Positions 2,046-38,797 of a stretch of DNA of 64,000 nt are shown one piece after another. Each line of letters starts with the position of its first letter. Within the stretch, counting starts at the first letter, position 1. Below the pieces are notes generated by a model that saw only the letters and a list, made by a program, of their open reading frames with translations, made no database searches and was not told the origin of the DNA. The stretch is from an uncultured cyanobacterium. Its GTDB lineage: Bacteria > Cyanobacteriota > Cyanobacteriia > Cyanobacteriales > CAWUOF01. Position numbers and translations under genes: made by a program. The stretch is from contig CAVUSO010000001.1 of the NCBI GenBank assembly GCA_963744145.1, positions 4,246,459 to 4,310,458 on the forward strand, given 5' to 3'.

Positions 2046-2048
2046 AAT

Positions 2049-2312: not shown

Positions 2313-2350
2313 AGTTAGGCTCTTTTTTGATCGGTATTCTTCTAATTATA

Positions 2351-2534
2351 GGAGAAGTTAGTGAAACTGGTAGATGGGAAAAACCAGGCGATCGCTACCT
2401 CCCCATTCTCTCAAATCTAATCTGCGTTTAGCTTGTCAAACTCAAGTTTCAGGTGATGTCATAGTCAGGAAAATGGATGGATTTTGGGGTCAAGGTTTTC
2501 AACCTGTGTGGACAACCTAAGCATAGTTAACTAT
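2351..2534 (+). pseudogene. dead duplicate of the 3' end of the ferredoxin-like gene
   Basis: Aligns base for base with 855..1039 apart from a few substitutions and a 1-nt deletion in the A-run. It has no 5' part and no start codon. Confidence 0.85.
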
Positions 2535-2537
2535 TGT

Positions 2538-2948
2538 TTAAGTTTCTACTATGGTTGAGGAAAGCCCGACTAAATCACCAGATTCAGTTGTCCCAATGAT
2601 ATAAACCTCTATTTGGCGCTGACCGATGCGATAAACTTGTAAGTTATTAAGATTATTTTTGATAGTAGCTACCAGAATTTTAAACCTTTTAACTGTTTCT
2701 TGTTCTGTCTGATTATGCCAATCTTGTGCAGTGACAAAATTCTGAAAAAAAGCATCAATATTAACTAATTCAATTGGGGTATCTGGGGAATGGTTGGTTT
2801 TTGCTAAAATTTGACTAGCAGGGATAGGTGTAGCAACAGATTCCCAACAAAAAACTGTTAATGGGGATGTTGATTCACTCATTAATAATAAGTCATTTGT
2901 TGCTTGTTGCAGTTGCTTGAAAATTATCAAAGTTGGCTCTTTCATCAA
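2538..2948 (-). CDS. nuiA: nuclease A inhibitor family protein (NuiA-like)
   Basis: 136 aa. LLLMSESTSPLTVFCWE ... VNIDAFF ... QDWHNQTEQETVKRFKILVATIKNNLNNLQVYRIG ... VYIIGTTESGDLVGLSSTIVET is colinear with my recollection of Nostoc NuiA. Confidence 0.75.
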   Translation of the reverse strand: MMKEPTLIIFKQLQQATNDLLLMSESTSPLTVFCWESVATPIPASQILAKTNHSPDTPIELVNIDAFFQNFVTAQDWHNQTEQETVKRFKILVATIKNNLNNLQVYRIGQRQIEVYIIGTTESGDLVGLSSTIVET

Positions 2949-3199
2949 GTTAATTTTAGTGATACCGACATATTATAAAACAAGATGGTTTGGAAATGCA
3001 CCTATGTAACACTGACATGAGTAGCCCATTGGGGGGGTCTCTTCTGTCAACTGCGGAAGTCTTGAAAATAAATCGCGATCGCTATTTCCCAAACCAGTCT
3101 CAAATATTAACTTTTGTAAAAACCTGAGCAACCTCTGGCTGAATCAAAAATAAATGTTGATACCATAATAGGAGGTGAAGGGGAGGGGAAAATAAGTTA

Positions 3200-4393: not shown

Positions 4394-4484
4394 TCCCTGA
4401 ATTTTGGGTAGTGCCATCTTGTTCATTGTTATATTTGAATTGTTATATTTGATTTTTATCTTTCAGTTATGAGTGTTGCCAATT

Positions 4485-5042
4485 TCACGGTTTTTGATGC
4501 ACTGGCACCAGGTTGGAACTGCCTGTAGTAGAGGTTTGCACATCTACAACTCCCCGATACATTCTCATACCGCAGGTAAATTGATATTCACCTGTTTTTT
4601 GAGGAGTAAATTGGATCGGAGTGGTTTTATTTAAAGGCAAATGAGTATCAATTCCAAAATCGGGAAACAAAACTTCTTCTAAACAACTATTGGCATCTTT
4701 GCGGCAGAAATTGAGCCGCACAGGTTGACCAACCTGCACAACTATGTAATTGGGTTGGTAGCCACCATCAACAGTAATAGTGAGTTCTTGCAAGCCCTGT
4801 TGGAGGGTAGTTTGCTGTACCTTGTTTTTTTTGAAGAGAAACCACCAAACTTCTGCACCAATTAGGGCTATACCGCCCAGCGTTACTCCTAGTTTCAAAG
4901 CAAAAGGTTGCTCGACCTGACGGAATTGGTTAGTCTGCTGCGCTGGCATATTCATGCCAGTAGCGGTTGCCTCTAAAGCAATTCCCGTCAATAATCCTAC
5001 AGATATAATTATACTACCTAAAACTTGGTTTTTGCTGTTCAT
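4485..5042 (-). CDS. membrane-anchored cupredoxin-domain protein
   Basis: N-terminal TM segments, then a C-terminal EYQFTCGMRMYRGVVDV motif typical of cupredoxin-like proteins encoded beside Cu-ATPases. It lies immediately downstream of the ATPase. Confidence 0.6.
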   Translation of the reverse strand: MNSKNQVLGSIIISVGLLTGIALEATATGMNMPAQQTNQFRQVEQPFALKLGVTLGGIALIGAEVWWFLFKKNKVQQTTLQQGLQELTITVDGGYQPNYIVVQVGQPVRLNFCRKDANSCLEEVLFPDFGIDTHLPLNKTTPIQFTPQKTGEYQFTCGMRMYRGVVDVQTSTTGSSNLVPVHQKP

Positions 5043-7490: not shown

Positions 7491-8075
7491 ATGAGTGAAT
7501 CAATCAAAGCAACCCGCGCTACTGTGGCGATCGGGACGTTAAATGTAGATGGTTATATGTTGCCTGACGGTAGTTACCGTATGTCTCAGACACAGGCGGC
7601 TGAAACTGTCGGAAAAGAAGAATTTAACGCACGGGATTTTTTAGCGTCTAAGACCTTCAAACGCTTAAGTGGTGAAGGTTATACGGACGGGAAATTTATC
7701 GAGATTGAGTCAGAATCTACTCAAGTTAGGGGGCAAAGTCGTTTTAGAGCTTTACCTTTAGAGGTCGTGGTTATCTATTGGATATACCAGTGCCATCGCG
7801 GTAATAAACAAGCTTTCTCGCTGTTGATTGCACTTGCTACTGAATCCCTAGAGCGTAGGTTTGATAATGCTTTTGGTGTGGTTCGCACTGAGCAAGAGCG
7901 CAACGATATCACTACAGCAAGGATCAATGCTCTCGAAAGAGACCTTGCTAATTTGGGTGATGGGTTTGCGATCGATGATGAAATCCGCCGCGAGCGTGAT
8001 TATTTTGAGACACTACTAAAGCAAAACGGTATCGATCCTTATGGGTTGCCAAGTGACGATCTCAAAAAACCATAA
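7491..8075 (+). CDS. hypothetical protein
   Basis: 194-aa ORF with normal codon use. No motif I can name. Confidence 0.4.
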   Translation: MSESIKATRATVAIGTLNVDGYMLPDGSYRMSQTQAAETVGKEEFNARDFLASKTFKRLSGEGYTDGKFIEIESESTQVRGQSRFRALPLEVVVIYWIYQCHRGNKQAFSLLIALATESLERRFDNAFGVVRTEQERNDITTARINALERDLANLGDGFAIDDEIRRERDYFETLLKQNGIDPYGLPSDDLKKP

Positions 8076-8403
8076 ATTTGATGGTCCAAACTTGGTGGAC
8101 TCATCCTATTTATGCCAGAGTTGAACCAATCTATAGCTTTGATGTGTGATCCGAATTAGGGGCGATCGCTGTTGACCAGTGTAGTTTTAGCCTTGCTGAT
8201 TTATGATGACAACTGCCAACAACACGCGTCTTGAAATATCTGATTTAATTGCTGATTTGGTTTGATCTAATGTGGTTCATTCTCAAGAAGAGAGAATAGA
8301 CAGTCATTGGATAAGTTTTGATGACTAATCAAACGGACATAAAGCTTGAAATGATTGCTAGTTAAACGGTAAGCGCGATTGAATCCGGTTGATTAATTTT
8401 TTG

Positions 8404-8988
8404 TCAATCCCCAAAAATCGCATCAACACTAATCACTATGTCCGGAAACGCAAGGGGTGAGATACTTTCACCGCGTCTAAACTGTTGTATACTTTCATAA
8501 CCGTTCGGACCGGGATTGCGATAAACCTCAACTAATTCAGCATTTATATCTACGATCCAAAGTTCAATAATCCCAGCTAGACTGTAGCGAAATGACTTAA
8601 CATTACGGTCGTGTTCAATTGTGGTGTCTGCTACTTCGATCAATAAATATACGTCTTGGGGTTGTGGATGTGGGTCTCGGTATGCGCGACTTTTCGAGAT
8701 TGATATATCCGGCTGCGGTTCTAATCCCCCGTTTAGTCTAACTGGAGTCTGAGCTGTAAGAAACGCACGATCACCCAAAGCCTTAGAGAAAATCGAGAGT
8801 AAAAACCCAATACAATTTGCATGACGACTACCCATCGGTGCCATAAGAATGATATCCCCATCAATTAATTCCGTCCGTTCATCAGGTCCAATTATCCCAA
8901 CTTCACCCAGTTTGTAATATTCCTCTACCGTAAACTTCTTTCTTGTTGGTGTTGTTGCTGTTGCTACTGCGATCATCTTTCTCACCAT
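8404..8988 (-). CDS. Uma2 (DUF820) family putative endonuclease, tandem copy 1
   Basis: FTVEEYYKLGE...ELIDGDII.MAPMG..H...PDISI...YLLIEVADTT...D...K...Y...GIIELWIVD is the Uma2 PD-(D/E)xK-like pattern. Confidence 0.8.
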   Translation of the reverse strand: MVRKMIAVATATTPTRKKFTVEEYYKLGEVGIIGPDERTELIDGDIILMAPMGSRHANCIGFLLSIFSKALGDRAFLTAQTPVRLNGGLEPQPDISISKSRAYRDPHPQPQDVYLLIEVADTTIEHDRNVKSFRYSLAGIIELWIVDINAELVEVYRNPGPNGYESIQQFRRGESISPLAFPDIVISVDAIFGD

Positions 8989-20137: not shown

Positions 20138-22366
20138 ATGCTAGGTTTGCGCTACGAATCAATCCTAGACCTGGTTACCTTCACCACCGAAAAAAGTAAA
20201 AATTCTACTTTTCTACCCATCAAAATTTTTACCAAATTAGTCCAATTCTGTCAACCTTTAATTCTAGCATTATGTGCTGCAACTGCGGAAATTCTTTTTT
20301 TGCGTGGTGTCGGGACAGGGGCACTTTTACTAACAGCGATGCTCCTCCAACCAGCAGTTTTATTAATGGGAATAACCGGAGTAATCGCAGCAGTTACCTT
20401 TGCTAAAATTGCTCAACTTGGACAGAACTATCTCGATCGAGGTCCATTTCTCTTTAACCCACTTCTAGCAGGTTTAAGTGTCGGTTACCTATTTCAACCA
20501 GGAGCAGCTTCTTTATTTCTCGCTGGAGTAGCAGGAATATTAGCTTTTATTCTCACCTGGACTCTATCCCATATCTTCCGAACTTTCTTATTTTTACCTG
20601 TCTTAAGTTTACCCTTTATCATCGTCAGTTGGGTAGTACATCTAGCTGCATTTCGTTATGCTGGATTACAACCAGCAATTATTCCTGCTCATGTTTATTC
20701 CATTGGTTTACCAATCTGGATGGAAGGATTCTTGAGAACTTTAGGGTTGATTTTTTTCCTCCCTAATATCTGGGTAGGAATTGTCGTCGCAGGATTACTA
20801 TTAGTCAACTCACGCATCCAATTTTTATTAGCAATAGGTGGTTATGCGTTAGGAACTTCCATTCGCGGTATTCTCACAGGAACATTTATTTATGTCTATT
20901 ATGATCCAGCAGCATTAAATTTTGTATTAGTTGCATTAGCGATCGGTGGTTTTTATCTCCTTCCCTCCATCCGAAGTTATGCGATCGCAGGTTTAGCAAT
21001 TGGATTAGTTGCAGTATTAAGCGAAGCAGTGAGTGTATTTTGGGCAGCTTCTGGGTTACCAGTTCATGCGTTACCTTATAATTTAGTCACCTTATTATTG
21101 TTGTATGTATTGGGATTAGTAGGATATCGTTGGTTAACTAGATATCCTCAACCAACTCCAGAACAAACTCTCGATTATGAATTAACTGCTCGATTAAGAT
21201 ATCAAGGTACGGGAAAAACAATTTCCTTACCTTTTTCTGGTCGTTGGTTAGTTTGGCAAGGTTTTCATGGTCAATGGACTCATCAAGGTTTGTGGTGTTA
21301 TGCTTATGATTTTGTGATTCAAGATGAGTCTGGTTCTACTTATCGTGATGATGGATTTAATCTGAAAGATTATTATGCTTATGGTAAACCAATCCTCTCT
21401 CCAGTTCGAGGTTGGATCGTTCGAGTCATTAGTGATTTACCAGATTGTGCGATCGGTAATATTGATCAGGAACATAATTGGGGTAATCATATAATTATTT
21501 ACGATGAACGAGGTTTTTATGTCGAAATATCCCATTTTGCTCAACATAGCATTACCGTAAAATCAGGCGATCGCGTAGAAATTGGCACTTTATTAGGTCG
21601 TTGTGGTAATTCTGGTTATTCTTCCCAACCACATATTCATATTCAAGTCCAACTTAGCGCCGAATTAGGTGCAGCAACAGCACTATTTAGTTTTGCTAAT
21701 CTGATGGTAGATGGTGAATTTAGAGCCGAAGCTACCCCATCAGAAAATACTATATTAGAACCAGTAGCAAGCGATCGCGCTCTCGCTAAAGCTTTAACTT
21801 TCCCCCTTGATTCTAGTTTCGATTTTACTGTTACTCAAAAAGAAAAAATCGTTGATCATCTCTCTTTAACTACCCGGATCACAGGAGATGGTTGGTTTTA
21901 TCTAGATTCGGGTAAAGCCAAATTATACTTTAGTCGAGATGAGTACGGATTTATCTTTCATCGATTAGATGGTAATGATCCTAACTTAGCCTTATTATTA
22001 ACAGCAATTCCTCGATTACCCCTAGCTAGACGTGAACCCGGAAATACATGGTCTGATTATCTTCCCGTCGGGATGATGATTACTGGAATTCGACAAATGG
22101 TTTACTTATTTGCTAGTTCCTTTGTACCAGAGTTAGCTTCAGCTCGCTATACTGGTGAATGGATTTCAAATGAAACTTTAGTAGGAGCAGTCACCATCCC
22201 AGGAATCAAGAATAAAGTATTGACATCTGCTACTTTTGCTCAAAATGGAGAAATTCTCAGAGTCGGTGTCGGTCAGCGATCGCTAGTACGTCAAGATTTA
22301 CAGGTTGTCACCCAGAAATCCCACCGTTGTTTAGGAGTCGGGATGAATGGAAGTACCGTTGGTTAG
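20138..22366 (+). CDS. fusion protein: polytopic membrane domain + M23 metallopeptidase + C-terminal domain of unknown function
   Basis: About 330 aa with roughly 10 hydrophobic helices, possibly of the urea-transporter fold (unverified). Then GNHIIIYDERGFYVEISHFAQHSITVKSGDRVEIGTLLGRCGNSGYSSQPHIHIQV, the M23 HxH signature. Then about 220 aa with no motif I recognise. Confidence 0.7.
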   Translation: MLGLRYESILDLVTFTTEKSKNSTFLPIKIFTKLVQFCQPLILALCAATAEILFLRGVGTGALLLTAMLLQPAVLLMGITGVIAAVTFAKIAQLGQNYLDRGPFLFNPLLAGLSVGYLFQPGAASLFLAGVAGILAFILTWTLSHIFRTFLFLPVLSLPFIIVSWVVHLAAFRYAGLQPAIIPAHVYSIGLPIWMEGFLRTLGLIFFLPNIWVGIVVAGLLLVNSRIQFLLAIGGYALGTSIRGILTGTFIYVYYDPAALNFVLVALAIGGFYLLPSIRSYAIAGLAIGLVAVLSEAVSVFWAASGLPVHALPYNLVTLLLLYVLGLVGYRWLTRYPQPTPEQTLDYELTARLRYQGTGKTISLPFSGRWLVWQGFHGQWTHQGLWCYAYDFVIQDESGSTYRDDGFNLKDYYAYGKPILSPVRGWIVRVISDLPDCAIGNIDQEHNWGNHIIIYDERGFYVEISHFAQHSITVKSGDRVEIGTLLGRCGNSGYSSQPHIHIQVQLSAELGAATALFSFANLMVDGEFRAEATPSENTILEPVASDRALAKALTFPLDSSFDFTVTQKEKIVDHLSLTTRITGDGWFYLDSGKAKLYFSRDEYGFIFHRLDGNDPNLALLLTAIPRLPLARREPGNTWSDYLPVGMMITGIRQMVYLFASSFVPELASARYTGEWISNETLVGAVTIPGIKNKVLTSATFAQNGEILRVGVGQRSLVRQDLQVVTQKSHRCLGVGMNGSTVG

Positions 22367-23856: not shown

Positions 23857-23997
23857 ACAGCGATCGCCATCTCAATATTTCGCCCAGTTCTCCGCTGATG
23901 TCCTCCAAAATATTCTTAACTGAACCGTATTGCGGTATGATTAACTGTCAGAACGCTATTCCCAGAGCGAGGCGATCGCAGTGAAACAATAATAAAG

Positions 23998-24204
23998 ATG
24001 CAACAATCGCGTGAGCTGATTCGCAGTTATGCCGCTTATGCTCTGAGTGCCTTTAAGAATTTTAGTGCAGCAGACATAGAAGAAATTACCCTGAAATTTG
24101 GGTTAAATATTGGTGGTAAAGCCGGAATTCCTTTTATCACAGAAGGAACTGCCGAAAGCAATTTAGAAATCGAAGTTAAATATAAATTTTCTAAGGCGAC
24201 TTAA
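23998..24204 (+). CDS. 5'-truncated duplicate of the Trypco2-like gene (C-terminal 68 aa)
   Basis: 23968..24236 aligns with 30481..30749, covering both coding sequence and 3' flank. The ORF starts at the internal Met of the full-length paralogue. Confidence 0.7.
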   Translation: MQQSRELIRSYAAYALSAFKNFSAADIEEITLKFGLNIGGKAGIPFITEGTAESNLEIEVKYKFSKAT

Positions 24205-24280
24205 AAAAAATTAAATAAAAAACGATTAACTGTTAAGTGCTTTTTTATTGGTATTCGAGGAAGGCGATCGCTCCAAATGT

Positions 24281-25201
24281 ATGACCAATGATTTTCCCAT
24301 CTTGTTTGTTACGGAAAAAGCTTATGAAGAATCCTCGAATGAAATTTTAGGGAGCAAGTATAAGTTTTGGTTCTATCACGAAGAATTTGGTCGTTGTCTT
24401 TACAAACAAAACCGAGTCAACTTGGGAGAAGATTGGGCAGAGAAAGTCGCATCAGAATTGTGTGAATTAATCGGACTTCCTCACGCTGTTTATGAATTGG
24501 CTTCAACTTGGAAAGGCGATCGCGGTGTAATTTCACCCAACTTTTTACCACAAGGGGGGACGCTTGTACATGGTAACGAACTGCTTACTTCAATTGTGCC
24601 AAATTACCTAACATTTAGCACCTACGGCGCATCACAACATACAATTGATGTAGTTTTAAGAGTTATTGCAGGCAGTTCTGTAAATTTACCCATTAATTGG
24701 ACACCGCCCTCTGGTATCCAAAAAGCAGTGGATGTATTTGTTGGCTATCTTTTGTTAGATGCGTGGATTGGTAACGGAGATCGTCACCATGAAAACTGGG
24801 GGATTGTCCGAATAAAACCGTCATCTACTTCAGAAGAAATGGAACACTTAGCACCTACTTACGATCATGCCTCAAGTTTAGGACGTGAACTCTCTGATGA
24901 AAAAAGGCAGAAACGATCTATACTGGATTATACCGACAAATGTTTTTCAGCGTTTTATGGTAGTGTTGATGATAAAAAGAGCCTGAAAGTTTTTGATACA
25001 TTCTCCCAAGTTGTTCATCGTTATCCCCAAGCAGCTAGTGTGTGGTTGACGCGACTTGAAAATATATCAGAAGCCAATATATTAGATATTTTTAATCGCA
25101 TTAATTGCTCACGGATCTCTCCCAATGCCAGTAATTTTGCTCAAAAAATTCTGGAAATTAACAAACACAGGATACTAACCTTATGGGAAACACTACCTTA
25201 A
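24281..25201 (+). CDS. HipA-like Ser/Thr kinase core without a HipA N-terminal domain (HipT-like architecture)
   Basis: Catalytic region LLLDAWIGNGDRHHENWGIV and APTYDHASSLG match the HipA C-domain motifs. The length (about 306 aa from the ATG at 24281) is too short to include the HipA N-subdomain. Confidence 0.75.
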   Translation: MTNDFPILFVTEKAYEESSNEILGSKYKFWFYHEEFGRCLYKQNRVNLGEDWAEKVASELCELIGLPHAVYELASTWKGDRGVISPNFLPQGGTLVHGNELLTSIVPNYLTFSTYGASQHTIDVVLRVIAGSSVNLPINWTPPSGIQKAVDVFVGYLLLDAWIGNGDRHHENWGIVRIKPSSTSEEMEHLAPTYDHASSLGRELSDEKRQKRSILDYTDKCFSAFYGSVDDKKSLKVFDTFSQVVHRYPQAASVWLTRLENISEANILDIFNRINCSRISPNASNFAQKILEINKHRILTLWETLP

Positions 25202-25212
25202 AAACACTAAAA

Positions 25213-25977
25213 ATGAAGACATCAAAAACACTATTTTTAGCTTGGCAAGACTATTTTAGTCGCGCTTGGTTTACCATAGGTCGGTTAACATTTGACGGAG
25301 ATATTTATAAATTTGTCTATACGCAAGGTGTAAAAGAAGCTCAAGAAAAATGTGCTTTTAATCCTTTATCTTCCTTTCCATATTTAGATCAAGTCTATAC
25401 ATCAACTCACCTATTTCCAGTCTTTGCTAATCGGTTAATGTCGCGATCGCGTCCTGATTATTCCAGTTTTATTGAATCGTTAAATCTTTTACCTGATAAT
25501 AACGAACCAATGGAAGTTTTAGCCCGCAGTGGTGGAGAACGAGAAACAGATACACTTGCGGTTTTTCCTTGTCCAGAAGTTGATGAAAAGGGACAATACA
25601 ATCTCTATTTTTTCTCGCATGGGTTGCGACACTTACCAACCAGTGCAATTGAGCGGATTAATCAGTTTGAACCTAGAGAAGAATTATGGTTAGCTCACGA
25701 ATTTCAAAATTCTTACGATTATCAGGCTTTAACTTTAAATACTAAAGACCATTACATTGTCGGTTATTGTCCGCGATATTTGCTGGCAGAAATTTTTGAA
25801 TTGCTTCGGCAAAATTCCAGTCTAAAAGTGCGAGTAGAGCAAGTAAATAAATCTCCAACCCCACTTCAGTTTCGTCTGTTATGTAAAATGAGTGTCAATT
25901 GTAGAGATAATTTTTGTCCTTTCTCAAGTAGTCAATATCAATCGCTGATTGTAGAAATTGCGATGAAATCTGCATAA
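25213..25977 (+). CDS. HipS/HipA-N-like domain fused to a HIRAN-like domain
   Basis: The N-half (F..IGRLTFDG..YKFVY...FNPLSSFPYLDQVYTSTHLFPVFANRL...PMEVLARSGGERETDTLAVFP) parallels the HipA N-terminal coupling domain. The C-half (EPREELWLAHEFQNSYDYQALTLNTKDHYIVGYCPRYLLAEIFELL) parallels the HIRAN pattern. It overlaps the kinase gene end. Confidence 0.55.
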   Translation: MKTSKTLFLAWQDYFSRAWFTIGRLTFDGDIYKFVYTQGVKEAQEKCAFNPLSSFPYLDQVYTSTHLFPVFANRLMSRSRPDYSSFIESLNLLPDNNEPMEVLARSGGERETDTLAVFPCPEVDEKGQYNLYFFSHGLRHLPTSAIERINQFEPREELWLAHEFQNSYDYQALTLNTKDHYIVGYCPRYLLAEIFELLRQNSSLKVRVEQVNKSPTPLQFRLLCKMSVNCRDNFCPFSSSQYQSLIVEIAMKSA

Positions 25978-26192
25978 CGCTTGGTATTATAATAACAAGA
26001 TTTACGCAAAATATCAACGCGATCGCATATACGGTATAATTAACTGTCAGAACGCTATTCCTAGAACGAGGCTCGCTAACATAAAATGCGTAAGTCTTGT
26101 ATATATTAAGTGCTGCTGAATATCTCATTAACTAGGAATATGCTGTAAATTGCACCAGTCTATAAATCGTGGCAGTTTATAAATCTTTGTGA

Positions 26193-29100
26193 TCATTTCC
26201 ATTGATTACAAACTTCTTTTATAGAATCAACTACACCTCGCATAGCTGTTTCTTCACCTAATGAAATAATAGCAGGATAAAGAGTTACTAAGTTTTTTAT
26301 AAAGTCTTGTCTATTAGTAGATGCTAGGATGTGAAGATATAACTTCCAATCAGAGAATGATAAATTAGATAAATCAAGACTATGGAGAAAACCATTGATT
26401 GCTTTTGCTTGATTTGGTTTAGAATTTATCTTAAAAATCTCATTTTTCACTTGAGATAATAATTGTTCAGGTACGAATTTACTTAGACCATTCAATACCT
26501 CTGCCCGACTGGATTCATCCTGAATAGTGCGTGCCGCATCCAAGGCTTCGGCAAAATAGGCCCTATCAATCTGAGCAAGGGAACTCAATACCTCTGCCCG
26601 ACTGGATTCATCCTGAATAGTGCGTGCTGCATCCAAGGCTTCGGCAAAATAGGCCCTATCAATCTGAGCAAGGGAACTCAATACCTCTGCCCGACTGTAT
26701 TTATCCTGAATAGTACGTGCCGCATCCAATAAAACTGAGAAATCTGCACCATCAATCTGAGCAAGAGATCTCAATACCAATGCCCGAAGGGATTCAGACT
26801 GAATAGCGCGTGCCGTATCCAATAAAACTGAGAAATCTGCACTATCAATCTGAGCAAGAGATCTCAATACTAATGCTCGAAGGGGTTCAGACTGAATAGT
26901 GCGTGCTGCATCTAATGCTTCTCCAAAATAAGCACTATCAATTTGAGCAAGGAATCTCAATACCTCTGCCCGACTGTATTTATCCTGAATAGCGCGTGCC
27001 GCATTCAATAAAACTGAGAAATCCGCACTATCAATCTGAGCAAGGGATCTTAATACCCATGCCCGCAAGAATTTATCCTGAATAGTGTGTGCCGCATCCA
27101 ATAAAACTGAGAAATCCGCACTATCAATCTGAGCAAGGGAACTCAATACCTCCGCCCGAATAGATTCAGACTGAATAGCGCGTACTGCATCCAATGCTTC
27201 GGCAAAATAGGCCCTATCAATCTGAGCAAGGGAACTTAATACCTTTGCCCGAATAGATTCATCCTGAATAGCGCGTGCCGCATCCAATGCTTCTGTAAAA
27301 CAGGCACTATCAATCTGAGCAAGGGAACTCAATACCTTTGCCCGAAGTGCCCGACGGGATTCATCCTGAATAGCGCGTGCCGCATCCAATGCTTCTGTAA
27401 AACAGGCACTATCAATCTGAGCAAGAGAACTCAATACCCATGCCCGAAAGGATTCATCCTGAAGAGCGCGTGTCGCATCCAATGCTTCGGCAAAATAGGC
27501 CCTATCAATCTGAGCAAGAGAACTCAATACTAATGCCCAAATGAATTGATCCTGACTAGCTTGTGCTGCATCCAATGCTTCTGTAAAATAGGCATTATCA
27601 ATCTGAGCAAGAGAACTCAATACTAATGCCCGATTTTTTTCATCCTGAATAGCGCGTGCTGCATCTAATGCTTCGGTAAAATAGGCCCTATCAATCTGAG
27701 CCAGGGCACTCAATGCCTCTGCCCGATTTTTTTTATCCTGAATAGCGCGTGCTGCATCCAATGCTTCGGTAAAATAGGCCCTATCAATCTGAGCCAGGGC
27801 ACTCAATACTTCTGCCCGATTGGATTCATTCTGAATAGCGCGTGTCGCATCCAATGCTTCGGCAAAATAGGCCCTATCAATCTGAGCCAGGGCACTCAAT
27901 GCCTCTGCCCGATGGTATTCATCCTGAATAGCGCTTATTTTTGTTAAAGCCTTCTTAAATAATGGTTTGGAAAAATAACAACATAATCCCTTAATCCATT
28001 CGGCTATTTTATGTTCATCTTGCATTTGCTCTACATAAGCCCAAGCTTGCTCTATTGTCCAAAATTTACCTTTGACAAATTCTTTGATCATGTCAATCGG
28101 TAGGTTTTCCAATAAACTGTTTAATGTTGCTGTAATTAAGGCATACCGATATTGCAGAACAATAGAGCGGGTTTTGTCTTGCTCATATTGTTGTTCGGCG
28201 ATCGCCCAAGCTCTAGCCACATCTTCCACAAAAATTGCTGGTTGACCAAGGCGATCGCAAGTTTCAAACCAAGCATTATGTCCTAAGCGATCGCTACTAC
28301 CTAGAAGAGTATGAATTTCATCAATCCAACCAGCTTGCTCTAAGTGCCAAGTCAACTGACGATGAATATATCCATCATTCGGTAAATTATACCAAGATTT
28401 TTCCTCAGTTTTTTCTCGGTAACGTTCTAGAAATTGTTGATGAGCCAAAGATAAGCAAGAACAATTTTTATCCCTAGAGCCTAGAGAATTAAGCTTACCT
28501 TCTTCAATCAGACTCCGAGCCATATCGTGCATAAGGTCGTGGATACGATAGGTTGGCTCATCCTCTAATGTAGTAACACCATCAGTCAGAAAAGAACGGT
28601 GTCGCAATAATGACAATCTTTGTTTAACTTGCACATTAGACGACAAATTCCACAGAACCGAAGCAACCTCTAGGGTAAGATTAACATCTTCTGGCAAAAT
28701 ACCTAACCAGGCAAACTGTTCTAACTGTTCCTGATTCAGCCGCTTTAAACTTAAGTTGAAACAAACTTCCAAACTATGTTTACGCTGTTCTTGCTCATCT
28801 AAATCTTCCCATCTTTCCGATGACTGTAAAAGTTTAAATACTCTAGAAAACTCAGCCTTAAATTCAGCTCGTAATTCCGCCCAAGTTGAACCATCTTTGA
28901 TTAAGTTAATCGCTAAATCCAGAGCTAATGGCAAATATCCCAATACCTGAGCAAAGGCTTTTGCTTCTATTTGATCAGCATCTTTCCAATCTTTGCCTAA
29001 CTTTCCTTTAATCAGTTCTAACGCTTCATCTTCGCTCATCAAATCTAAAGAATAGTAATCAGCCTGAGCAATTCTTGCTTCCCTAGTTGTCACCAATACC

Positions 29101-30296
29101 CGACAACCTTCACCACCCACCTGAAACCATTTAGCATGATCTGCATTCCACACATCATCTACTACCAGCAACATTTGTTTTTCTGCTAACAAAGTTTGTA
29201 AATACTGAGTAGCTGATTCCTTAGTATTTGCACTAAATGCTTCCCGCGATCGATCAAGCTCTCGAATCCAATCCCCTAATAACTTCTGTAAATCCGGTTT
29301 TTGTCCTAAAGTTACCCAGAGAATTCCATCTTCAAACCGAGCATTTACTTCTGGATCTCGCACTAGAGCCGCAGCTAAAACTGACTTTCCTAAACCTCCT
29401 AATCCAGCGATCGCGGTTACTACCAGAGTTTGTCCATTTCTGCCCAGAAGTTTTTCTTTTACTGCTTTGAGAGCATCTAACCGTTCCACGTAATTTTCTG
29501 GTAAGGGAATATGGGGAAACGACTTAGATTTCTGAGGTTTTCTTTGAGTAGAATAATTGAGAATGGGAATAGGTCGTCCACTGAGCAGGTGAACGGGTTC
29601 TTGACCACTTCCCTTTAATTGAATACAAATAAAAACGGTTAGTATACCAGCATAAATATTGCCATCATCAGCAGCTTGTTCCGGTTGGAGTCCTTGCAGC
29701 AACGCTTTAGTAAAAAGACCATGCTCTTGATCTTCATAAGCCTTTTCTTCGGCTCTACAAGCTGTAATTAAACAATAGTCAGGCTGACGATTAAAGCTTT
29801 TTAAAGTTGACTGTACTAAATCTTTGCTGAAGGTCTCAAGTAAAGCTCCTGCATGACAGCAATCTAAGAGAATTACTAAACTGCTGAGATCAGAATCGCT
29901 CACCAACTTATTCAAATCTTCTAATCGAATCAGCGTTTCCATATCTTTTTTAGCAGAATTGGAAGCAGCGAGAAAACCTTGTTTTTCTCCAGAAAGAGTA
30001 GTTATTTGAAAACCATGTCCTGCATAATAAACTAGAGCATCTTTCCGAGCAGCTTTTTCGAGCAGAAAAGTTTTTAGAGTTTGATAGAGATCGGCAGCTA
30101 GAACTTTTTGTGAGATAATCTCATAACGACTTTTCTCATTAACCCATTTACAAGGAAACCGGACAACCTCTTGAAAAGCTCCAGACCGTTCTAGCAATTG
30201 AGCCATTTCCTCCGCATCAGTAACCGCTTTCTTTAAGGAAGGGAAACTAGGAGAGTCATATTGAGAAATACCGATTACCAGTGCATATCGCGTCAT
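26193..30296 (-). CDS. STAND NTPase: caspase-like (C14) protease + NB-ARC ATPase + helical linker + fifteen 31-aa HEAT-like repeats
   Basis: Caspase dyad YYAGHGF / LLDCCHAGA. NB-ARC motifs GLGGLGKSVLAAA (Walker A), LLVVDDVW (Walker B) and VLVTTR. C-terminal repeats of consensus AEVLSSLAQIDRAYFAEALDAARAIQDESSR. Confidence 0.85.
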   Translation of the reverse strand: MTRYALVIGISQYDSPSFPSLKKAVTDAEEMAQLLERSGAFQEVVRFPCKWVNEKSRYEIISQKVLAADLYQTLKTFLLEKAARKDALVYYAGHGFQITTLSGEKQGFLAASNSAKKDMETLIRLEDLNKLVSDSDLSSLVILLDCCHAGALLETFSKDLVQSTLKSFNRQPDYCLITACRAEEKAYEDQEHGLFTKALLQGLQPEQAADDGNIYAGILTVFICIQLKGSGQEPVHLLSGRPIPILNYSTQRKPQKSKSFPHIPLPENYVERLDALKAVKEKLLGRNGQTLVVTAIAGLGGLGKSVLAAALVRDPEVNARFEDGILWVTLGQKPDLQKLLGDWIRELDRSREAFSANTKESATQYLQTLLAEKQMLLVVDDVWNADHAKWFQVGGEGCRVLVTTREARIAQADYYSLDLMSEDEALELIKGKLGKDWKDADQIEAKAFAQVLGYLPLALDLAINLIKDGSTWAELRAEFKAEFSRVFKLLQSSERWEDLDEQEQRKHSLEVCFNLSLKRLNQEQLEQFAWLGILPEDVNLTLEVASVLWNLSSNVQVKQRLSLLRHRSFLTDGVTTLEDEPTYRIHDLMHDMARSLIEEGKLNSLGSRDKNCSCLSLAHQQFLERYREKTEEKSWYNLPNDGYIHRQLTWHLEQAGWIDEIHTLLGSSDRLGHNAWFETCDRLGQPAIFVEDVARAWAIAEQQYEQDKTRSIVLQYRYALITATLNSLLENLPIDMIKEFVKGKFWTIEQAWAYVEQMQDEHKIAEWIKGLCCYFSKPLFKKALTKISAIQDEYHRAEALSALAQIDRAYFAEALDATRAIQNESNRAEVLSALAQIDRAYFTEALDAARAIQDKKNRAEALSALAQIDRAYFTEALDAARAIQDEKNRALVLSSLAQIDNAYFTEALDAAQASQDQFIWALVLSSLAQIDRAYFAEALDATRALQDESFRAWVLSSLAQIDSACFTEALDAARAIQDESRRALRAKVLSSLAQIDSACFTEALDAARAIQDESIRAKVLSSLAQIDRAYFAEALDAVRAIQSESIRAEVLSSLAQIDSADFSVLLDAAHTIQDKFLRAWVLRSLAQIDSADFSVLLNAARAIQDKYSRAEVLRFLAQIDSAYFGEALDAARTIQSEPLRALVLRSLAQIDSADFSVLLDTARAIQSESLRALVLRSLAQIDGADFSVLLDAARTIQDKYSRAEVLSSLAQIDRAYFAEALDAARTIQDESSRAEVLSSLAQIDRAYFAEALDAARTIQDESSRAEVLNGLSKFVPEQLLSQVKNEIFKINSKPNQAKAINGFLHSLDLSNLSFSDWKLYLHILASTNRQDFIKNLVTLYPAIISLGEETAMRGVVDSIKEVCNQWK
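26490..27930. repeat. 93-bp tandem repeats, about 15 copies, inside the STAND gene
   Basis: The period is read directly: tcctgaatagtgcgtgc recurs at 26518 and 26611. The last two units are identical at the protein level. Confidence 0.85.
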
Positions 30297-30333
30297 TCTG
30301 ATAATTGACCTAAAATCATTTTGCTGTTAACCT

Positions 30334-30717
30334 ATGATAAACCATTCTCTTGAGGGTACTATGTCCGAGATTCAAAAAATGCTATATACCGATGAAGATG
30401 GTAAAGAGTACGAAATCCTGATAGAAAATAAATCAGCAGTCAATCTTCCTGATGCTGATGTTGATGAAGGACGTGGTTCGCGAGGCGATCGCAGTGAAAC
30501 AATAATAAAGATGCAGCAAGCTCGTGAAATGATTCGCGGTTATGCAGCTTATGCTCTGAGTGCCTTTAAGGATTTTGGGGTAGCAGAAATAGAAGAAATT
30601 ACCCTGAAATTTGGGTTAAAGATTGGTGGTAAAGCCGGAATTCCTTTTATCACAGAAGGAACTGCTGAAAGCAACTTGGAAATCGAAGTTAAATGTAAAT
30701 TTCCTAAGGGGACTTAA
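30334..30717 (+). CDS. Trypco2-like (trypsin-co-occurring domain 2 / CU044_2847-like) small protein
   Basis: The C-terminal IRGYAAYALSAFKDFGVAEIEEITLKFGLKIGGKAGIPFITEGTAESNLEIEVKCKF is the pattern I recall for this effector-associated family. It is divergent from the caspase-NB-ARC gene, 38 nt away. The true start may be the ATG at 30361. Confidence 0.55.
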   Translation: MINHSLEGTMSEIQKMLYTDEDGKEYEILIENKSAVNLPDADVDEGRGSRGDRSETIIKMQQAREMIRGYAAYALSAFKDFGVAEIEEITLKFGLKIGGKAGIPFITEGTAESNLEIEVKCKFPKGT

Positions 30718-30882
30718 ACAAAATTAAATAAAAAACGATTAACTGTTAACTGTAATTACAAGCTAAAATAATTAAACCCTTTGGAAGAAGTGGTTTTAAA
30801 GCAATTAAGCTTCGCGGTCAATAATGTGACACTTGATGGTATGGGTTCGATCCAACTAGGATTTTAGTGGAAAGTTGTTAAG

Positions 30883-31461
30883 ATGAACAGTTTAACTCTC
30901 AACCTACCGCCTGTTCTCAAATTAACAGATGAGCAGTTTGAACAATTGGCGGCTGTTAATGGCGATTTAGGTTTAGAATTGACACCGAAGGGAGAACTAA
31001 TTGTTATGCCACCGACGGGAGGAGAAACCGGAAACCGAAATTTTGAGGCTTACATTGACTTGGGAATTTGGAACCGTCAAACTCTTTTGGGAAAAGCTTT
31101 TGATTCTTCTACAGGATTTCGATTACCTCAAGGTGGTACTCGTTCCCCTGATATTTCTTGGGTGACGATAGGACGTTGGAATAATCTTACTGAAGAGCAA
31201 CGCAAGAAATTTTTGCCTTTATGTCCTGATTTTGCGATCGAACTAGTTTCAGAAACAGATGATGTGGAAGAAACACGGGCAAAAATGCAGGAATATTTAC
31301 AAAATGGGTTACGTTTGGGATGGTTGATTAATCCTAAACTCAGACAAGTGGAAATTTATCGCCCGAATCAAGAGGTAGAGGTTTTGGCATCTCCTACGAC
31401 TTTATCGGGTGAGGATGTTTTACCAGGGTTTGTTTTAGATTTAGAGTTCATTTTTTCCTAA
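30883..31461 (+). CDS. Uma2 family putative endonuclease (second subfamily), copy L
   Basis: LTDEQFEQLA...GELIVMPPTGGETGNRNFE...SPDISWV...PDFAIELVSETD...GLRLGWLINP is the Uma2 pattern. Confidence 0.8.
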   Translation: MNSLTLNLPPVLKLTDEQFEQLAAVNGDLGLELTPKGELIVMPPTGGETGNRNFEAYIDLGIWNRQTLLGKAFDSSTGFRLPQGGTRSPDISWVTIGRWNNLTEEQRKKFLPLCPDFAIELVSETDDVEETRAKMQEYLQNGLRLGWLINPKLRQVEIYRPNQEVEVLASPTTLSGEDVLPGFVLDLEFIFS

Positions 31462-31586: not shown

Positions 31587-31874
31587 TCATCGTCAGTTGG
31601 GTAGTACATCTAGCTGCTTTTCGTTATGCTGGATTACAACCTCGCAGGTTTAGCAATTGGATTAGTTGCAGTATTAAGTGAAGCAGTGAGTGTATTTTGG
31701 GCAGCTTCTGGGTTACCAGTTCATGCGTTACCCTATAATTTAGTCACCTTATTATTGTTGTATGTATTAGAATTAGTAGGATATCGTTGGTTAACTAGAT
31801 ATCCTCAACCAACTCCAGTGTCGGTCAGCGATCGCTAGTACGTCAAGATTTACAGTTTGTCACCCAGAAATCCC
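31587..31874 (+). pseudogene. three-segment mosaic copy of the membrane-M23 gene
   Basis: 31587..31641 matches 20619..20673. 31642..31818 matches 20985..21160. 31819..31874 matches 22266..22322. All are in the same orientation, and segments 1 and 2 are out of frame with each other. Confidence 0.85.
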
Positions 31875-31912
31875 GAGTTGGGTTATCTTTAGTTTAATTA
31901 GGATAAATATTG

Positions 31913-32197
31913 ATGTCTAATCCGACAATTGAAGCAAAAATTAGTCTTCCGGTAAGTTTATTAGAAGCGACTAATAAAGCAGTGCAACAAGGAAAAGCAA
32001 ATAGCCGCGATGAATTTATTATGCGGGCAATTCGCAAGGAATTAGCGGCGCTGAAGCGAGCAGAAATTGATGCTTCATTTGCTAAAATGGCGAATGATGC
32101 AGAGTATCAAGCCGAAGCATTGCAAATTGCCGAGGAATTTGCTATTTCGGACTGGGAAGCTTGGCAAATGGGAGAATCTGAATATGAACAGGGGTGA
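31913..32197 (+). CDS. ribbon-helix-helix (CopG-type) antitoxin
   Basis: KISLPVSLLEATNKAVQQGKANSRDEFIMRAIRKEL is a typical RHH N-terminus. It overlaps the start of the mazF-like ORF. Confidence 0.7.
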   Translation: MSNPTIEAKISLPVSLLEATNKAVQQGKANSRDEFIMRAIRKELAALKRAEIDASFAKMANDAEYQAEALQIAEEFAISDWEAWQMGESEYEQG

Positions 32198-32369
32198 TGT
32201 TTACAATGCTCGTCTCGATCCAATTGAGGGATCTGAACAAGGGGGAAATCGTCCAGTGATTATTGTCAGTCGTAATGCTATTAATGTGAGTAGTTCTTTC
32301 GTGATAGCAGTTCCTTGGTCATTGTATAAACCTTCGTATAAAGTTGCGGGGTTTTATACGCTCATTTGA
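32184..32369 (+). pseudogene. mazF: MazF/PemK-family toxin, 3'-truncated
   Basis: MNRGDVYNARLDPIEGSEQGGNRPVIIVSRNAINVSSSFVIAVP is a normal MazF N-half. From about 32325 the sequence turns into unrelated AT-rich DNA, leaving 61 aa where roughly 110 are expected. Confidence 0.7.
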
Positions 32370-32462
32370 TGCTTGTCAATAGGTTTTGTAAAAATATTTT
32401 ATAAAGCATCTAAACGCTATAACAACGTAATACCAATGTTTTCACGCCACACCGTGTAATGT

Positions 32463-32572
32463 TTCTACGCTCACCTGTAGAAATTTCTATGCTCACCTAT
32501 AAAATTTTCTACGCTCACAAGATATAATTTCTACGCGGGACTATATAATTTTCTATATTATTTTTACTGGTA
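32463..32572. repeat. 22-bp tandem repeat, about 5 units, inverse orientation relative to the array at 46653
   Basis: ttctacgctcacctgtagaaat / ttctatgctcacctataaaatt / ttctacgctcacaagatataat / ttctacgcgggactatataatt / degenerate unit. Confidence 0.8.
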
Positions 32573-36012: not shown

Positions 36013-36591
36013 ATGAACAGTTTAACTCTCAACCTACCGCCTGTTTTCAAATTAACAGATGAGCAGTTTGAACAATTGGCGGCTGTTAATGGCGATTTAG
36101 GTTTAGAATTGACAGCGCAGGGAGAACTAATTATTATGCCACCGACGGGAGGAGAAACAGGCGATCGCAATTTTGAAATTGATGGACAGCTTTGGTTGTG
36201 GAATCGTCAAAATTTTCTGGGGAAAGCCTTTGATTCTTCTACAGGGTTTCGATTACCAAATGGCGCAACTCGTTCTCCCGATGTGGCTTGGATCAAAATT
36301 GAAAGATGGGAAGCTTTAACCCCGACACAAAGAAAGAAATTTTTACCGCTATGTCCTGATTTTGCGATCGAACTGGTTTCAGAAACAGATGATGTGGAAG
36401 AAACGCGAGCAAAAATGCAGGAATATTTACAAAATGGATTGCGGTTGGGATGGTTGATTAATCCTAAACTCAGAGAAGTGGAAATTTATCGCCCGAATCA
36501 AGAGGTAGAGGTTTTGGTATCTCCTACGACTTTATCGGGTGAAGATGTTTTACCAGGGTTTGTTTTAGATTTAGAGTTCATTTTTTCCTAA
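36013..36591 (+). CDS. Uma2 family putative endonuclease (second subfamily), copy R
   Basis: Same length as copy L. The first ~100 nt and last ~240 nt are nearly identical to copy L, while the middle is diverged. Confidence 0.8.
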   Translation: MNSLTLNLPPVFKLTDEQFEQLAAVNGDLGLELTAQGELIIMPPTGGETGDRNFEIDGQLWLWNRQNFLGKAFDSSTGFRLPNGATRSPDVAWIKIERWEALTPTQRKKFLPLCPDFAIELVSETDDVEETRAKMQEYLQNGLRLGWLINPKLREVEIYRPNQEVEVLVSPTTLSGEDVLPGFVLDLEFIFS

Positions 36592-36835: not shown

Positions 36836-38797
36836 ATGAAATCATCTAGCGACTTCTTAATTATTGGCGGTGGTATTATTGGTCTATCACTAGCAGTTGA
36901 ACTGAAATTGCGAGGGGGATCAGTAAGAGTCCTCAGTCGGAATGCTCCCGAAGGTGCTACTTATGCTGCTGCTGGAATGCTAGCACCTCAAGCAGAAAGA
37001 ATTCCTGCCGGACCAATGTTAGATTTATGTATCCGATCGCGATCGCTCTATCCAGAATGGGTTCGCAAACTGGAGGATATTTCTGGTTTATCGACCGGAT
37101 ATTGGCCTTCTGGCATTTTAGCACCAGTTTATGCAGAAGATCAGCTCGAAAAAATTCCGACTGATTCATCTTTTTGGTTAGATCATCGGGCAATTCATCA
37201 ATGTCAATCGGGATTAGGTCCAGATGTTATTGGTGGTTGGTGGTTTCCAGAAGATGGACAAGTTGATAATCGTGCTTTAGCGGTGGTCTTATGGACATCA
37301 GCTCGGGAATTAGGAGTGAATCTGGATGAAGGTGTTACGGTAGAAGCGATCGAACAACAACATGGTCAGGTTAGTGGTGTCAGAACTACCACAGGTTTAT
37401 TCACAGCAGGACATTATATTTTAGCTACTGGAGCTTGGTCAAATCAGTTATTACCACTCCCAGTCTCTCCAAAAAAAGGACAAATGTTATCAGTCCGAAT
37501 CCCTGGAGAGGGAAATCATTTAGCCAGAGTTTTATTTGGTTCGGAAACCTATATTGTCCCTAGACGTGATGGACAAATTATCATTGGTGCTACCACTGAA
37601 GAGGTGGGATTTACTCCCCATAATACTCCAGTCGGAATTCAAGCTTTATTAAACAGGGCAATTCGGCTTTATCCAGAATTGCAACATTATCCTATTCAAG
37701 AATTCTGGTGGGGATTTCGGCCCAATACTCCTGACGAGATGCCGATCTTAGGACCAAGTTTATGTCAAAATTTAAGTTTAGCGATCGGTCATTATCGGAA
37801 TGGAATTTTGTTAGCACCAGTGACAGCTGTTTTGTTAGCAGAATCTATTCAGGGACAAAAATCTGATCCTTTATTAGCAAATTTTCAGTTAGAACGGTTT
37901 TTCTTGACTAATTCAGCTTTGTGTGCATCCAAACCAGATCAATATTCCCCATCTATGCTAACTTATCCCAACCCAACCCCAGTCATTCCATCGGTTCTAG
38001 CTCTTGATCCTCCCTTAATTATTGCCGGTCGTAAGTTTAAGTCTCGGTTAATGACAGGTACAGGTAAATATCGCAGTATTGCCGATATGCAGCAAAGTAT
38101 CCTGAAAAGTGAATGTGAAATTGTCACTGTCGCAGTCAGAAGAGTGCAAACTCAAGCACCAGGACATGAAGGATTAGCAGAAGCATTAGATTGGACTAAG
38201 ATTTGGATGTTACCGAATACCGCGGGTTGTCAAACGTCTGAAGAAGCAATTCGAGTAGCGAGGTTAGGACGGGAAATGGCGAAATTATTAGGGCAAGAGG
38301 ACAATAATTTTGTCAAATTAGAGGTGATTCCTGATCCAAAATATTTACTACCCGATCCGATCGGCACCCTGGAAGCTGCGGAAAAATTAGTGCAAGAAGG
38401 GTTTGCGGTATTACCTTATATTAATGCTGATCCGATCCTGGCTAAACGTTTAGAAGAAGTGGGCTGTGCTACAGTTATGCCATTGGGTTCACCAATTGGT
38501 TCCGGTCAAGGGATTAAAAATGCAGCCAATATTCAGATTATTATTGAAAATGCTAGGATTCCCGTCGTAGTTGATGCAGGGATTGGGACTCCGAGTGAAG
38601 CAGCTCAAGCAATGGAAATGGGAGCTGATGCTGTTCTGATTAATACAGCGATCGCTAACGCTCAAAATCCGGCATTAATGGCCCAAGCTATGGGAATGGC
38701 TACAATTGCTGGTCGTCTCGCTTATTTAGCAGGGAGAATTCCAGTTAAATCTTATGCTAGCGCCAGTTCGCCTCTGACTGGGACAATTAACAGTTAA
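36836..38797 (+). CDS. thiOG: bifunctional glycine oxidase ThiO / thiazole synthase ThiG fusion
   Basis: N-terminus [18 protein letters not shown] (FAD fold, ThiO-like). C-half [17 protein letters not shown]...[14 protein letters not shown] (ThiG signature). Confidence 0.88.

Follow-up and report, generated by a model that had tools for sequence, protein, structure and literature searches.

We examined a 64,000-nucleotide stretch of DNA from an uncultured cyanobacterium of the order Cyanobacteriales (GenBank assembly GCA_963744145.1, contig CAVUSO010000001.1, positions 4,246,459 to 4,310,458 of the forward strand; hereafter the window), and within it a pair of divergently oriented genes. The larger gene codes for a protein that joins a caspase-like protease domain to an NB-ARC NTPase and a long arm of tandem repeats, and the smaller for a protein of the Trypco1/Trypco2 kind, which is now named Pepco (bioRxiv 10.1101/2025.11.14.688446). 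Here we describe the two proteins, the distribution of related loci and the cell-death mechanism that they suggest; feature coordinates are collected in Table 1.

The two proteins of the locus

The large open reading frame (ORF; 26193..30296, minus strand) codes for 1367 residues. An initial annotation, made from the sequence without database searches, had credited this protein with an intact caspase His/Cys dyad, canonical NB-ARC motifs and a 15-unit repeat arm, that is, with the architecture of an NLR-like STAND protein. These points were borne out: Pfam places Peptidase_C14, NB-ARC and APAF1_C on the protein, the repeat arm is real and, judged from its sequence, the protein is confirmed as an NLR-like caspase-NB-ARC-repeat STAND protein.

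At the N-terminus, the Peptidase_C14 match spans residues 2-206 (e-value = 1e-18, 68 bits against a cut-off of 21.4) and contains the motifs AGHG (92-95, with His94) and DCCHAG (145-150, with Cys147). The match to a p20-type fold together with the intact His-Cys dyad places the domain among the C14 caspase-like proteases. Arabidopsis metacaspase-4 was the nearest solved structure, a weak match (e-value = 0.002) aligned through GHG and DxCHxG that puts His94 and Cys147 on its dyad. D27, H94, D145 and C147 are kept in 99-100% of 76 caspase domains linked to Pepco genes. Asp27 and Asp145 presumably stand at the positions of D95 and D211 of TbMCA2, and by position they would be expected to be the acidic pocket residues of Arg/Lys-specific metacaspases. 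Orthocaspases and metacaspases are described as favouring a basic P1 residue (PMC6426788; PMC8283722), with D95/D211 of TbMCA2 cited as determinants (PMC8283722).

The NTPase follows, with an NB-ARC match over residues 275-496 (e-value = 9.5e-27, 94 bits against a cut-off of 23.5). Its motifs occur in order: Walker A GLGGLGKS (298-305), Walker B LLVVDDVW (376-383), the TTR/sensor-1 (RNBS-B) motif VLVTTR (400-405), the GLPL-like GYLPLAL (453-459) and MHD (589-591). Among solved structures, Apaf-1 was the best match to this module (e-value = 1.5e-15), followed by plant NLRs of the NRC/ZAR1 type, and the APAF1_C match beyond the MHD motif covers residues 618-667 (e-value = 6e-6, 26.6 bits against a cut-off of 22.8).

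The repeat arm was delimited with Tandem Repeats Finder, which reported a period of 93 nucleotides, 15.4 copies and 84% matches (26492-27934); at the protein level we count 15 full units of 31 residues (795-1262), a partial unit at each end and one 3-residue insertion. By sequence, Pfam HEAT_2 reaches 21.5 bits on the arm, under its cut-off of 27.7. An AlphaFold2 model of residues 700-1367, built from the single sequence (predicted local distance difference test score, pLDDT, of 78), is an unbroken alpha-solenoid of helical hairpins that is all-helical at residues 700-794, and the top Foldseek matches of the modelled arm in the PDB are HEAT solenoids (CAND1, mTOR, SF3B1 and karyopherins; e-values of 1e-6 to 1e-4, probability 1.00). 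Variation between the units clusters at repeat positions 1, 4, 8, 14, 16, 18 and 29-31. Since positions 31/1/4/8 are spaced as helical i, i+3/4 neighbours, they are expected to lie along a single side of the first helix, and this variable face would look like the surface expected to bind a ligand. Over the nine positions that vary most, the ratio of nonsynonymous to synonymous variation (pN/pS) reaches 1.06, against 0.40 in the remainder of the repeats. As the sites were picked beforehand for their variability, this is no evidence for positive selection.

The 127-residue divergent gene of the initial annotation stands as an ORF, with 37 nucleotides between it and the 1367-residue ORF, but its start probably does not. 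Translation most probably begins at the second ATG (30361) rather than at 30334, because the start of nearly all of 29 aligned homologues corresponds to MSEVQ and the gene call in the database also has 118 residues; this leaves 64 nucleotides between the two start codons. When the locus was scanned for consensus promoters and terminators, fewer matches were found than in shuffled controls, with one -35/-10-like site at 30330-30301 on the minus strand, and the scan was uninformative.

The small protein matches Trypco1 (PF19493) over profile positions 7-98 of 98 (e-value = 1.9e-18, 67.3 bits against a cut-off of 24.6) and CU044_2847 (NCBIfam NF041216) with 83 bits against a cut-off of 23. It had been placed in a Trypco2/CU044_2847 family, of which the second name holds and the first does not, the Pfam family being Trypco1. 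No Pfam match to Trypco2 was listed at e-values up to 10 for the small protein, its remnant copy (see below) or a trypsin-linked relative, all of which returned only Trypco1, with the limit that HMMER filters discard most matches above an e-value of about 0.1 even under this threshold. The proposed tie of the family to protease-bearing conflict systems is upheld. Kaur et al. 2020 (eLife, PMC7159879) defined Trypco1 and Trypco2 as small proteins co-occurring with trypsin-like peptidases in NTPase conflict systems. A profile search for the small protein among 1.84 billion cluster representatives returned 304 clusters at e-values up to 0.001. Two other identities were discarded. A chance ORF is ruled out by the hidden Markov model scores and by 332 database relatives. 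An EACC1-type system is contradicted by the caspase domain, which scores 88.7 bits against the cut-off of 140 for the model 'caspase, EACC1-associated type' (NF047832), and by the adjoining gene, which is Trypco1 and not EACC1.

An AlphaFold2 monomer model of the small protein, built on 79 sequences (pLDDT 66, moderate confidence), predicts an N-terminal beta-hairpin (residues 3-23), a disordered charged linker (24-41), a helix (42-70) and a long C-terminal hairpin (76-113, with strands at 76-89 and 101-113) that ends in a short tail. Both long strands of the model alternate strictly between hydrophobic and charged residues and are thus amphipathic. Relatives in the PDB were found neither by sequence profile (best e-value = 0.54) nor by Foldseek (best e-value = 1.2).

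Table 1. Features of the divergent gene pair and of its immediate surroundings, in window coordinates.
Feature	Positions	Strand	Remarks
Caspase-like C14 protease domain (orthocaspase/metacaspase-type), N-terminal	29562..30296	-	Residues 1-245; His94 and Cys147 catalytic; Asp27 and Asp145 acidic
NB-ARC (AP-ATPase) NTPase module	28524..29474	-	Residues 275-591; Pfam and motifs
Helical linker after MHD, including APAF1_C (HD2-like) at 618-667	27915..28523	-	Residues 592-794
Sensor arm of 15 tandem 31-residue HEAT-like helical-hairpin repeats	26511..27914	-	Residues 795-1262; Tandem Repeats Finder, AlphaFold2, Foldseek
C-terminal helical cap and stop codon	26193..26510	-	Residues 1263-1367; aligned to the P0124 C-terminus; helical in the AlphaFold2 model
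Divergent intergenic region between start codons	30297..30360	none	64 nucleotides with the start at 30361; presumed overlapping divergent promoters
Pepco/Trypco1/CU044_2847 small protein	30361..30717	+	118 residues; longest ORF 30334..30717, 127 residues
Predicted protease-licensing site N-L-E-I-E-V-K-C-K-F-P	30673..30705	+	Residues 105-115 of the 118-residue Pepco; clade comparison
Remnant of a second copy of the locus	23933..24239	+	Equals the intact locus minus 26073-30479 (all of the STAND gene and the 5' 40% of Pepco)
PDC-M03 pair (PADLOC candidate defence system)	24248-25977		Two overlapping genes between the Pepco remnant and the intact locus

Distribution of the pair and its sensor modules

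We surveyed one genome per species and obtained 80 loci that code for a relative of the small protein (50-65% identity); almost all carry a cyanobacterial label. A divergent ORF with a caspase domain lies directly upstream of the small gene in 78 of these, across a gap of 26-311 nucleotides (median 87, commonest 65), and in the other two the small gene lies within 300 nucleotides of a contig end; in the window the caspase-domain gene is 37-64 nucleotides away, depending on the start chosen. The pairing of the caspase gene with the small gene is not due to chance. Most partners (53/78) are caspase-nSTAND1-WD40 proteins, followed by short or cut caspase-nSTAND1 proteins (10/78) and by proteins with the caspase domain only (10/78). 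The rest are two caspase-iSTAND proteins and one each of the caspase-TPR, caspase-nSTAND1-cyclase and caspase-NB-ARC-HEAT-like types, the last from Drouetiella hepatica (L017). The conserved partner of the small gene is the caspase domain and not NB-ARC. The closest named relative of the small protein (P0002 from Leptolyngbya sp. FACHB-261, locus L084, 73% identity) is also divergent from a caspase-nSTAND1-WD40 gene, and a distant metagenomic caspase-NB-ARC protein (P0215) has a divergent Trypco1 gene 71 nucleotides away.

The initial annotation had expected the small gene to recur beside caspase-STAND genes, an expectation that holds for the caspase (78/80 loci) and fails for the NB-ARC type, since the partners are mostly nSTAND1-WD40 proteins. 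It had further staked its reading on a Trypco2-type match and a conserved neighbourhood. The match is absent and the neighbourhood conserved; as the latter is the point that matters, the reading was not refuted.

The caspase domain and the Pepco of the window share one best-match locus (L001), to which they are 52% and 67% identical, respectively, and across 75 comparable loci the identities of the two are correlated (Spearman 0.58). This fits joint inheritance of caspase and Pepco, with shared species history also contributing. Residues 249-1367, on the other hand, match a protein from Pseudanabaena sp. BC1403 (P0124) with 60% identity over 1158 residues, the N-terminus of P0124 (about 120 residues) being unrelated. 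Many cyanobacterial NB-ARC proteins share 60-68% identity with the same residues but begin with TIR, trypsin plus EAD10, PF19959 or unassigned domains, whereas full-length caspase-NB-ARC relatives of the window protein reach only 38-42% identity. Because the caspase domain tracks the Pepco-linked cassettes while residues 249-1367 belong to another lineage, the 1367-residue protein is a chimera with its junction near residues 245-250. It is a Pepco-linked caspase cassette seated on a widely used NB-ARC/HEAT sensor chassis, and the caspase plus Trypco1 cassette itself is modular and swapped between sensor chassis, mostly of the nSTAND1-WD40 type.

Comparison with the relatives of either half illustrates this arrangement. 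The sibling NB-ARC/HEAT proteins (P0124, the TIR-NB-ARC proteins P0162/P0164 and the trypsin-EAD10-NB-ARC protein P0141) have the same type of 31-residue repeat and the same C-terminal cap as the window protein, a cap that is kept with this chassis in other proteins as well, but differ in their N-terminal effector domain (TIR, trypsin, PF19959 or unassigned instead of caspase). The trypsin sibling has a trypsin-type Pepco of its own, which is co-directional, unlike the divergent one of the window. Conversely, cyanobacterial caspase-nSTAND1-WD40 loci with a divergent Trypco1 gene (for instance L003, L008 and L084) share the divergent layout of the window, with spacers of 26-311 nucleotides, and are 45-52% (caspase) and 54-73% (Pepco) identical to it, yet combine an nSTAND1 NTPase with a WD40 beta-propeller sensor where the window protein has NB-ARC, APAF1_C and 31-residue HEAT-like repeats. 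Residues 1-120 of P0124, which take the place of the caspase, may be an uncharacterised effector or signalling domain.

Candidate cleavage site and proposed mode of action

Such pairings were initially described as predicted only computationally, a statement that is now outdated given the tested trypsin-Avs4/Pepco pair of Streptomyces. Evans et al. (bioRxiv 10.1101/2025.11.14.688446) characterised SsPepco and the trypsin-like SsAvs4 of Streptomyces subrutilus genetically and biochemically. In their work SsPepco forms pre-made beta-barrels of 9-10 subunits that resist sodium dodecyl sulfate, and SsAvs4 cuts it after a conserved Ile (I97), removing a charged, Pro-rich C-terminal tail of 2 kDa. 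SsPepco that ends exactly at I97 is lethal and acts as a pore toxin. Cellular toxicity requires SsPepco, the catalytic serine and a phage portal protein, and is abolished by Pepco deletion or protease mutation.

Trypsin-linked Pepco genes of cyanobacteria were examined in three loci (L083, 2280-6430; L085, 5001-10102; L086, 5001-8110), where they are co-directional with and directly upstream of the protease-sensor gene, with a 4-nucleotide overlap; the caspase-linked genes, in contrast, are always divergent. The partners are a trypsin-EAD10-NB-ARC gene (L083), a trypsin-HEAT gene (L085) and a trypsin gene with only a faint NACHT match (L086). A second trypsin gene of the NB-ARC type (1778-4879) directly precedes Pepco in L086. 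When a trypsin-linked Pepco was used to search for homologues, the best 120 matches were all cyanobacterial.

We compared 114 Pepco proteins of the caspase clade with 118 of the cyanobacterial trypsin clade. The two clades are only about 20% identical, with a common core of KFG...G...G...NLEI, and the Ile of NLEI (Ile108 in the window) is kept in 111 of the 114 caspase-clade and all 118 trypsin-clade proteins. After this Ile, the caspase clade continues as [E/S/Q]-V-K-C-[K/T]-F-P, with V, K and C at +2, +3 and +4 in 114, 113 and 114 of the 114 proteins, and the trypsin clade as T-L-E-W-E. In the window, the sequence after Ile108 (EVKCKFPKGT) is 40% charged. In one trypsin-clade protein of 110 residues the Ile is residue 96, in agreement with I97 of SsPepco, which has 117 residues. 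As the segment after the Ile tracks the type of protease, it is a natural candidate for the recognition site and probably marks it. Lys111 (118-residue numbering) would be the best candidate for P1, because the caspase clade appears to retain both acidic pocket residues of Arg/Lys-specific metacaspases; with low confidence, we take a cut after Lys111 to be the most likely event and the Asp/Arg-rich linker to be the alternative site.

Taken together, we hypothesize that the two genes form an NLR-like system for regulated cell death, of the protease-Pepco type and most probably serving anti-phage abortive infection, to which we give a probability of roughly 0.65. The 1367-residue protein would be kept inactive at rest. 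Its HEAT-like repeat solenoid would act as the sensor and bind a trigger, which by analogy would be a conserved protein of a phage. The Apaf-1-type NB-ARC would then exchange nucleotide and oligomerise, gathering and thereby activating the N-terminal caspase-like domains. The active protease would cut the divergent neighbour Pepco, most likely within the C-terminal I-E-V-K-C-K-F-P, and the trimmed Pepco, presumably a beta-barrel oligomer with a hydrophobic exterior, would permeabilise the membrane and kill the cell. We hold the identities of the parts with high confidence. The mechanism merits only moderate confidence, because it is based on homology to one tested system with a different protease class; this applies to pore formation by Pepco and to its activation by cleavage, both drawn from the homologous SsAvs4-SsPepco pair. 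The trigger, the exact scissile bond and a phage-defence role in this organism are what we infer beyond this, with low confidence for the exact cleavage site and the trigger.

Several observations weigh against this proposal. In the searchable literature, neither a caspase-linked nor a cyanobacterial Pepco was found to have been tested, which is the part of the initial statement on computational prediction that stands. The small protein is not covered by any model of PADLOC v2, which returned only generic 'caspase' and 'TPR' matches for the large one, and the monomer model of Pepco is of only moderate confidence and lacks a structural match in the PDB. A caspase-NB-ARC protein from Leptothoe (L081) has no Pepco neighbour. 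As to the cleavage site, Ile97 of SsPepco was equated with Ile108 by position and conservation only. The distant Pepco linked to a caspase-NB-ARC protein in L082 has Glu at the proposed P1 Lys, and the tail of the window Pepco is very short, with 5 residues past the last predicted strand. In SsPepco a serine protease makes the cut after Ile, something that a caspase-type enzyme is unlikely to do, so that the scissile bond in the window Pepco is a guess. It is conceivable that caspase-linked Pepco is licensed by other chemistry than the serine-protease form, through a cut after the invariant Lys of I-x-V-K-C-x-F-P or in the Asp/Arg-rich linker, instead of after the conserved Ile, that would give the pore a different C-terminus, and that the NB-ARC/HEAT chassis recognises a class of trigger, cyanophage or endogenous, that is new for any Avs. 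We put this forward as a tentative and rather doubtful possibility.

Alternatively, Pepco might not be the death effector here but keep the caspase in check or in place, as a regulator, an adaptor or a decoy substrate, while the caspase kills by cutting other cellular proteins. Such a role would suit the roughly ten caspase partners that have no recognisable sensor domain, and Kaur et al. 2020 (PMC7159879) treated the Trypco domains as partners co-occurring with proteases, without assigning them a role. Broad-target bacterial caspase-like proteases have also been reported (PCaspase, as cited in bioRxiv 10.1101/2025.11.14.688446). The same preprint, however, speaks for an effector, as deletion of SsPepco abolishes toxicity and precisely truncated SsPepco kills by itself (bioRxiv 10.1101/2025.11.14.688446). 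An effector role also fits the pair of amphipathic strands and the strictly 1:1 linkage, and we consider a purely regulatory Pepco improbable.

The nature of the trigger can also be read differently. Fungal allorecognition NLRs have highly similar repeats that vary at few positions, and the highly similar repeats of the window protein, which also vary at few positions, recall them. The same sensor-protease-Pepco machine might answer a non-phage trigger, such as endogenous stress, regulated death within filaments, or self/non-self recognition like that of the fungal NLR-type het loci. The family is concentrated in filamentous, multicellular cyanobacteria, Kaur et al. 2020 (PMC7159879) tie these systems to multicellularity, and Evans et al. 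(bioRxiv 10.1101/2025.11.14.688446) raise stress roles for related protease-effector modules. Nevertheless, every STAND-protease-effector system tested so far answers phage proteins (bioRxiv 10.1101/2025.11.14.688446; 10.64898/2026.01.04.697583), the locus stands among defence-type genes, and at the variable repeat positions, themselves chosen for their variability, pN/pS stays near 1 and is not clearly higher. A non-phage trigger therefore seems unlikely.

Genomic surroundings and related systems

A variable stretch of about 14 kilobases surrounds the locus, bounded by a urea-transporter/M23-peptidase gene (20138-22366) on one side and a ThiO-ThiG gene (36836-38797) on the other. In the PDC-M03 pair, PDC-M03A is a HipA_C-like kinase of 317 residues (e-value = 8e-111) and PDC-M03B a Couple_hipA/HIRAN protein of 264 residues (e-value = 2e-103). 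The remnant of the second locus copy is related to the intact locus by direct repeats (23967-24239 to 30480-30752, 92%; 23933-23973 to 26032-26072, 93%), and its junction is at a CGAGGC microhomology adjoining the GCGATCGC site. A 68-residue ORF in the remnant (23998-24204) comprises only the Pepco helix and C-terminal hairpin and still matches Trypco1 (e-value = 3e-14).

On the far side of the pair, 31587-31874 is a mosaic, decayed copy of the urea-transporter/M23-peptidase gene, three joined pieces that are 98% identical to parts of 20619-22322. About 9.3 kilobases with defence genes thus lie between an intact and a degraded copy of one gene, which suggests that the defence region arose either by duplication followed by deletions or by insertion of an island. 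Two genes for Uma2-family nucleases are found in the island, one directly downstream of Pepco (30883-31461) and one at 36013-36591. A Uma2 gene (7928-8500) likewise lies downstream of Pepco in the L084 locus of Leptolyngbya sp. FACHB-261; the common neighbour could reflect shared ancestry of the flank or the mere abundance of Uma2 in cyanobacteria. At 31910-32369, a 95-residue ORF overlaps a PemK/MazF-like ORF, a toxin gene that looks truncated or frameshifted because its match to PemK is confined to profile positions 2-55 of 109. Four to five tandem direct repeats of 22 nucleotides (TTTCTACGCTCAC plus a variable part) at 32440-32549 look like iterons or operator sites. They mark the edge of an AT-rich segment (31-34% guanine plus cytosine, 32-36 kilobases) that holds a 397-residue P-loop NTPase with weak nSTAND6/AAA matches and an unassigned 196-residue ORF.

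With the neighbouring second copy already bereft of the STAND gene and of the 5' part of Pepco, and with a decayed copy of another gene and a MazF that is probably truncated in the same region, the window locus might itself be intact in sequence but silent or decaying, a leftover of island turnover. Yet both ORFs are full length, all catalytic and NTPase motifs are intact, and the conserved start, the motifs and the Pepco core have all been kept, so we regard a silent locus as very improbable and retain the cell-death system as the preferred reading.

The window locus joins an already described kind, that of protease plus pore toxin; it is a good example and not a new system, and it leaves the general picture of Kaur et al. 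2020 and Evans et al. 2025 unchanged. Its value lies in a clean, intact set of bacterial caspase, Apaf-1-like NTPase and putative pore toxin, in the lineage with the closest reported bacterial relatives of the apoptosome, which makes it a good candidate for learning how a caspase-type protease licenses Pepco. As caspase, trypsin, TIR and other outputs all occur on one NB-ARC/HEAT chassis, a single trigger could be used to compare several effectors.

Among known systems, SsPepco with SsAvs4 resembles the window in pairing a small Trypco1-family protein (about 110-120 residues) with an adjoining protease fused to a STAND sensor. Further points of resemblance are a conserved Ile close to the domain end with a charged stretch behind it, the Ile being equated by position and conservation, amphipathic strands that would suit a barrel, and a cassette that is found on many sensors. 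However, the SsAvs4 protease is a trypsin-like serine protease and that of the window a Cys-His protease of the caspase type; SsPepco lies immediately upstream of SsAvs4, whereas the window genes are divergent and not co-directional; and the window sensor is NB-ARC with HEAT-like repeats rather than Avs4. In the EACC1-caspase modules (for instance KrAvs12 with EACC1 of Ktedonobacter), a STAND-borne caspase-like protease cuts an adjoining small pro-toxin that then forms membrane pores, as we propose for the window. EACC1, though, is a monomer that assembles after loss of an N-terminal inhibitory piece, whereas the small protein of the window is Trypco1. Finally, a 2026 preprint (10.64898/2026.01.04.697583) describes orthologues of Apaf-1 in bacteria that bear a caspase-like domain at the N-terminus, the closest of them in cyanobacteria and all with beta-propeller sensors. 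Like these, the window protein is cyanobacterial and carries NB-ARC and APAF1_C with a caspase-like domain in the place of CARD, but its sensor is a HEAT-like alpha-solenoid. Apaf-1 itself recruits a separate procaspase through its CARD, whereas the window protein carries a caspase-like domain of its own.

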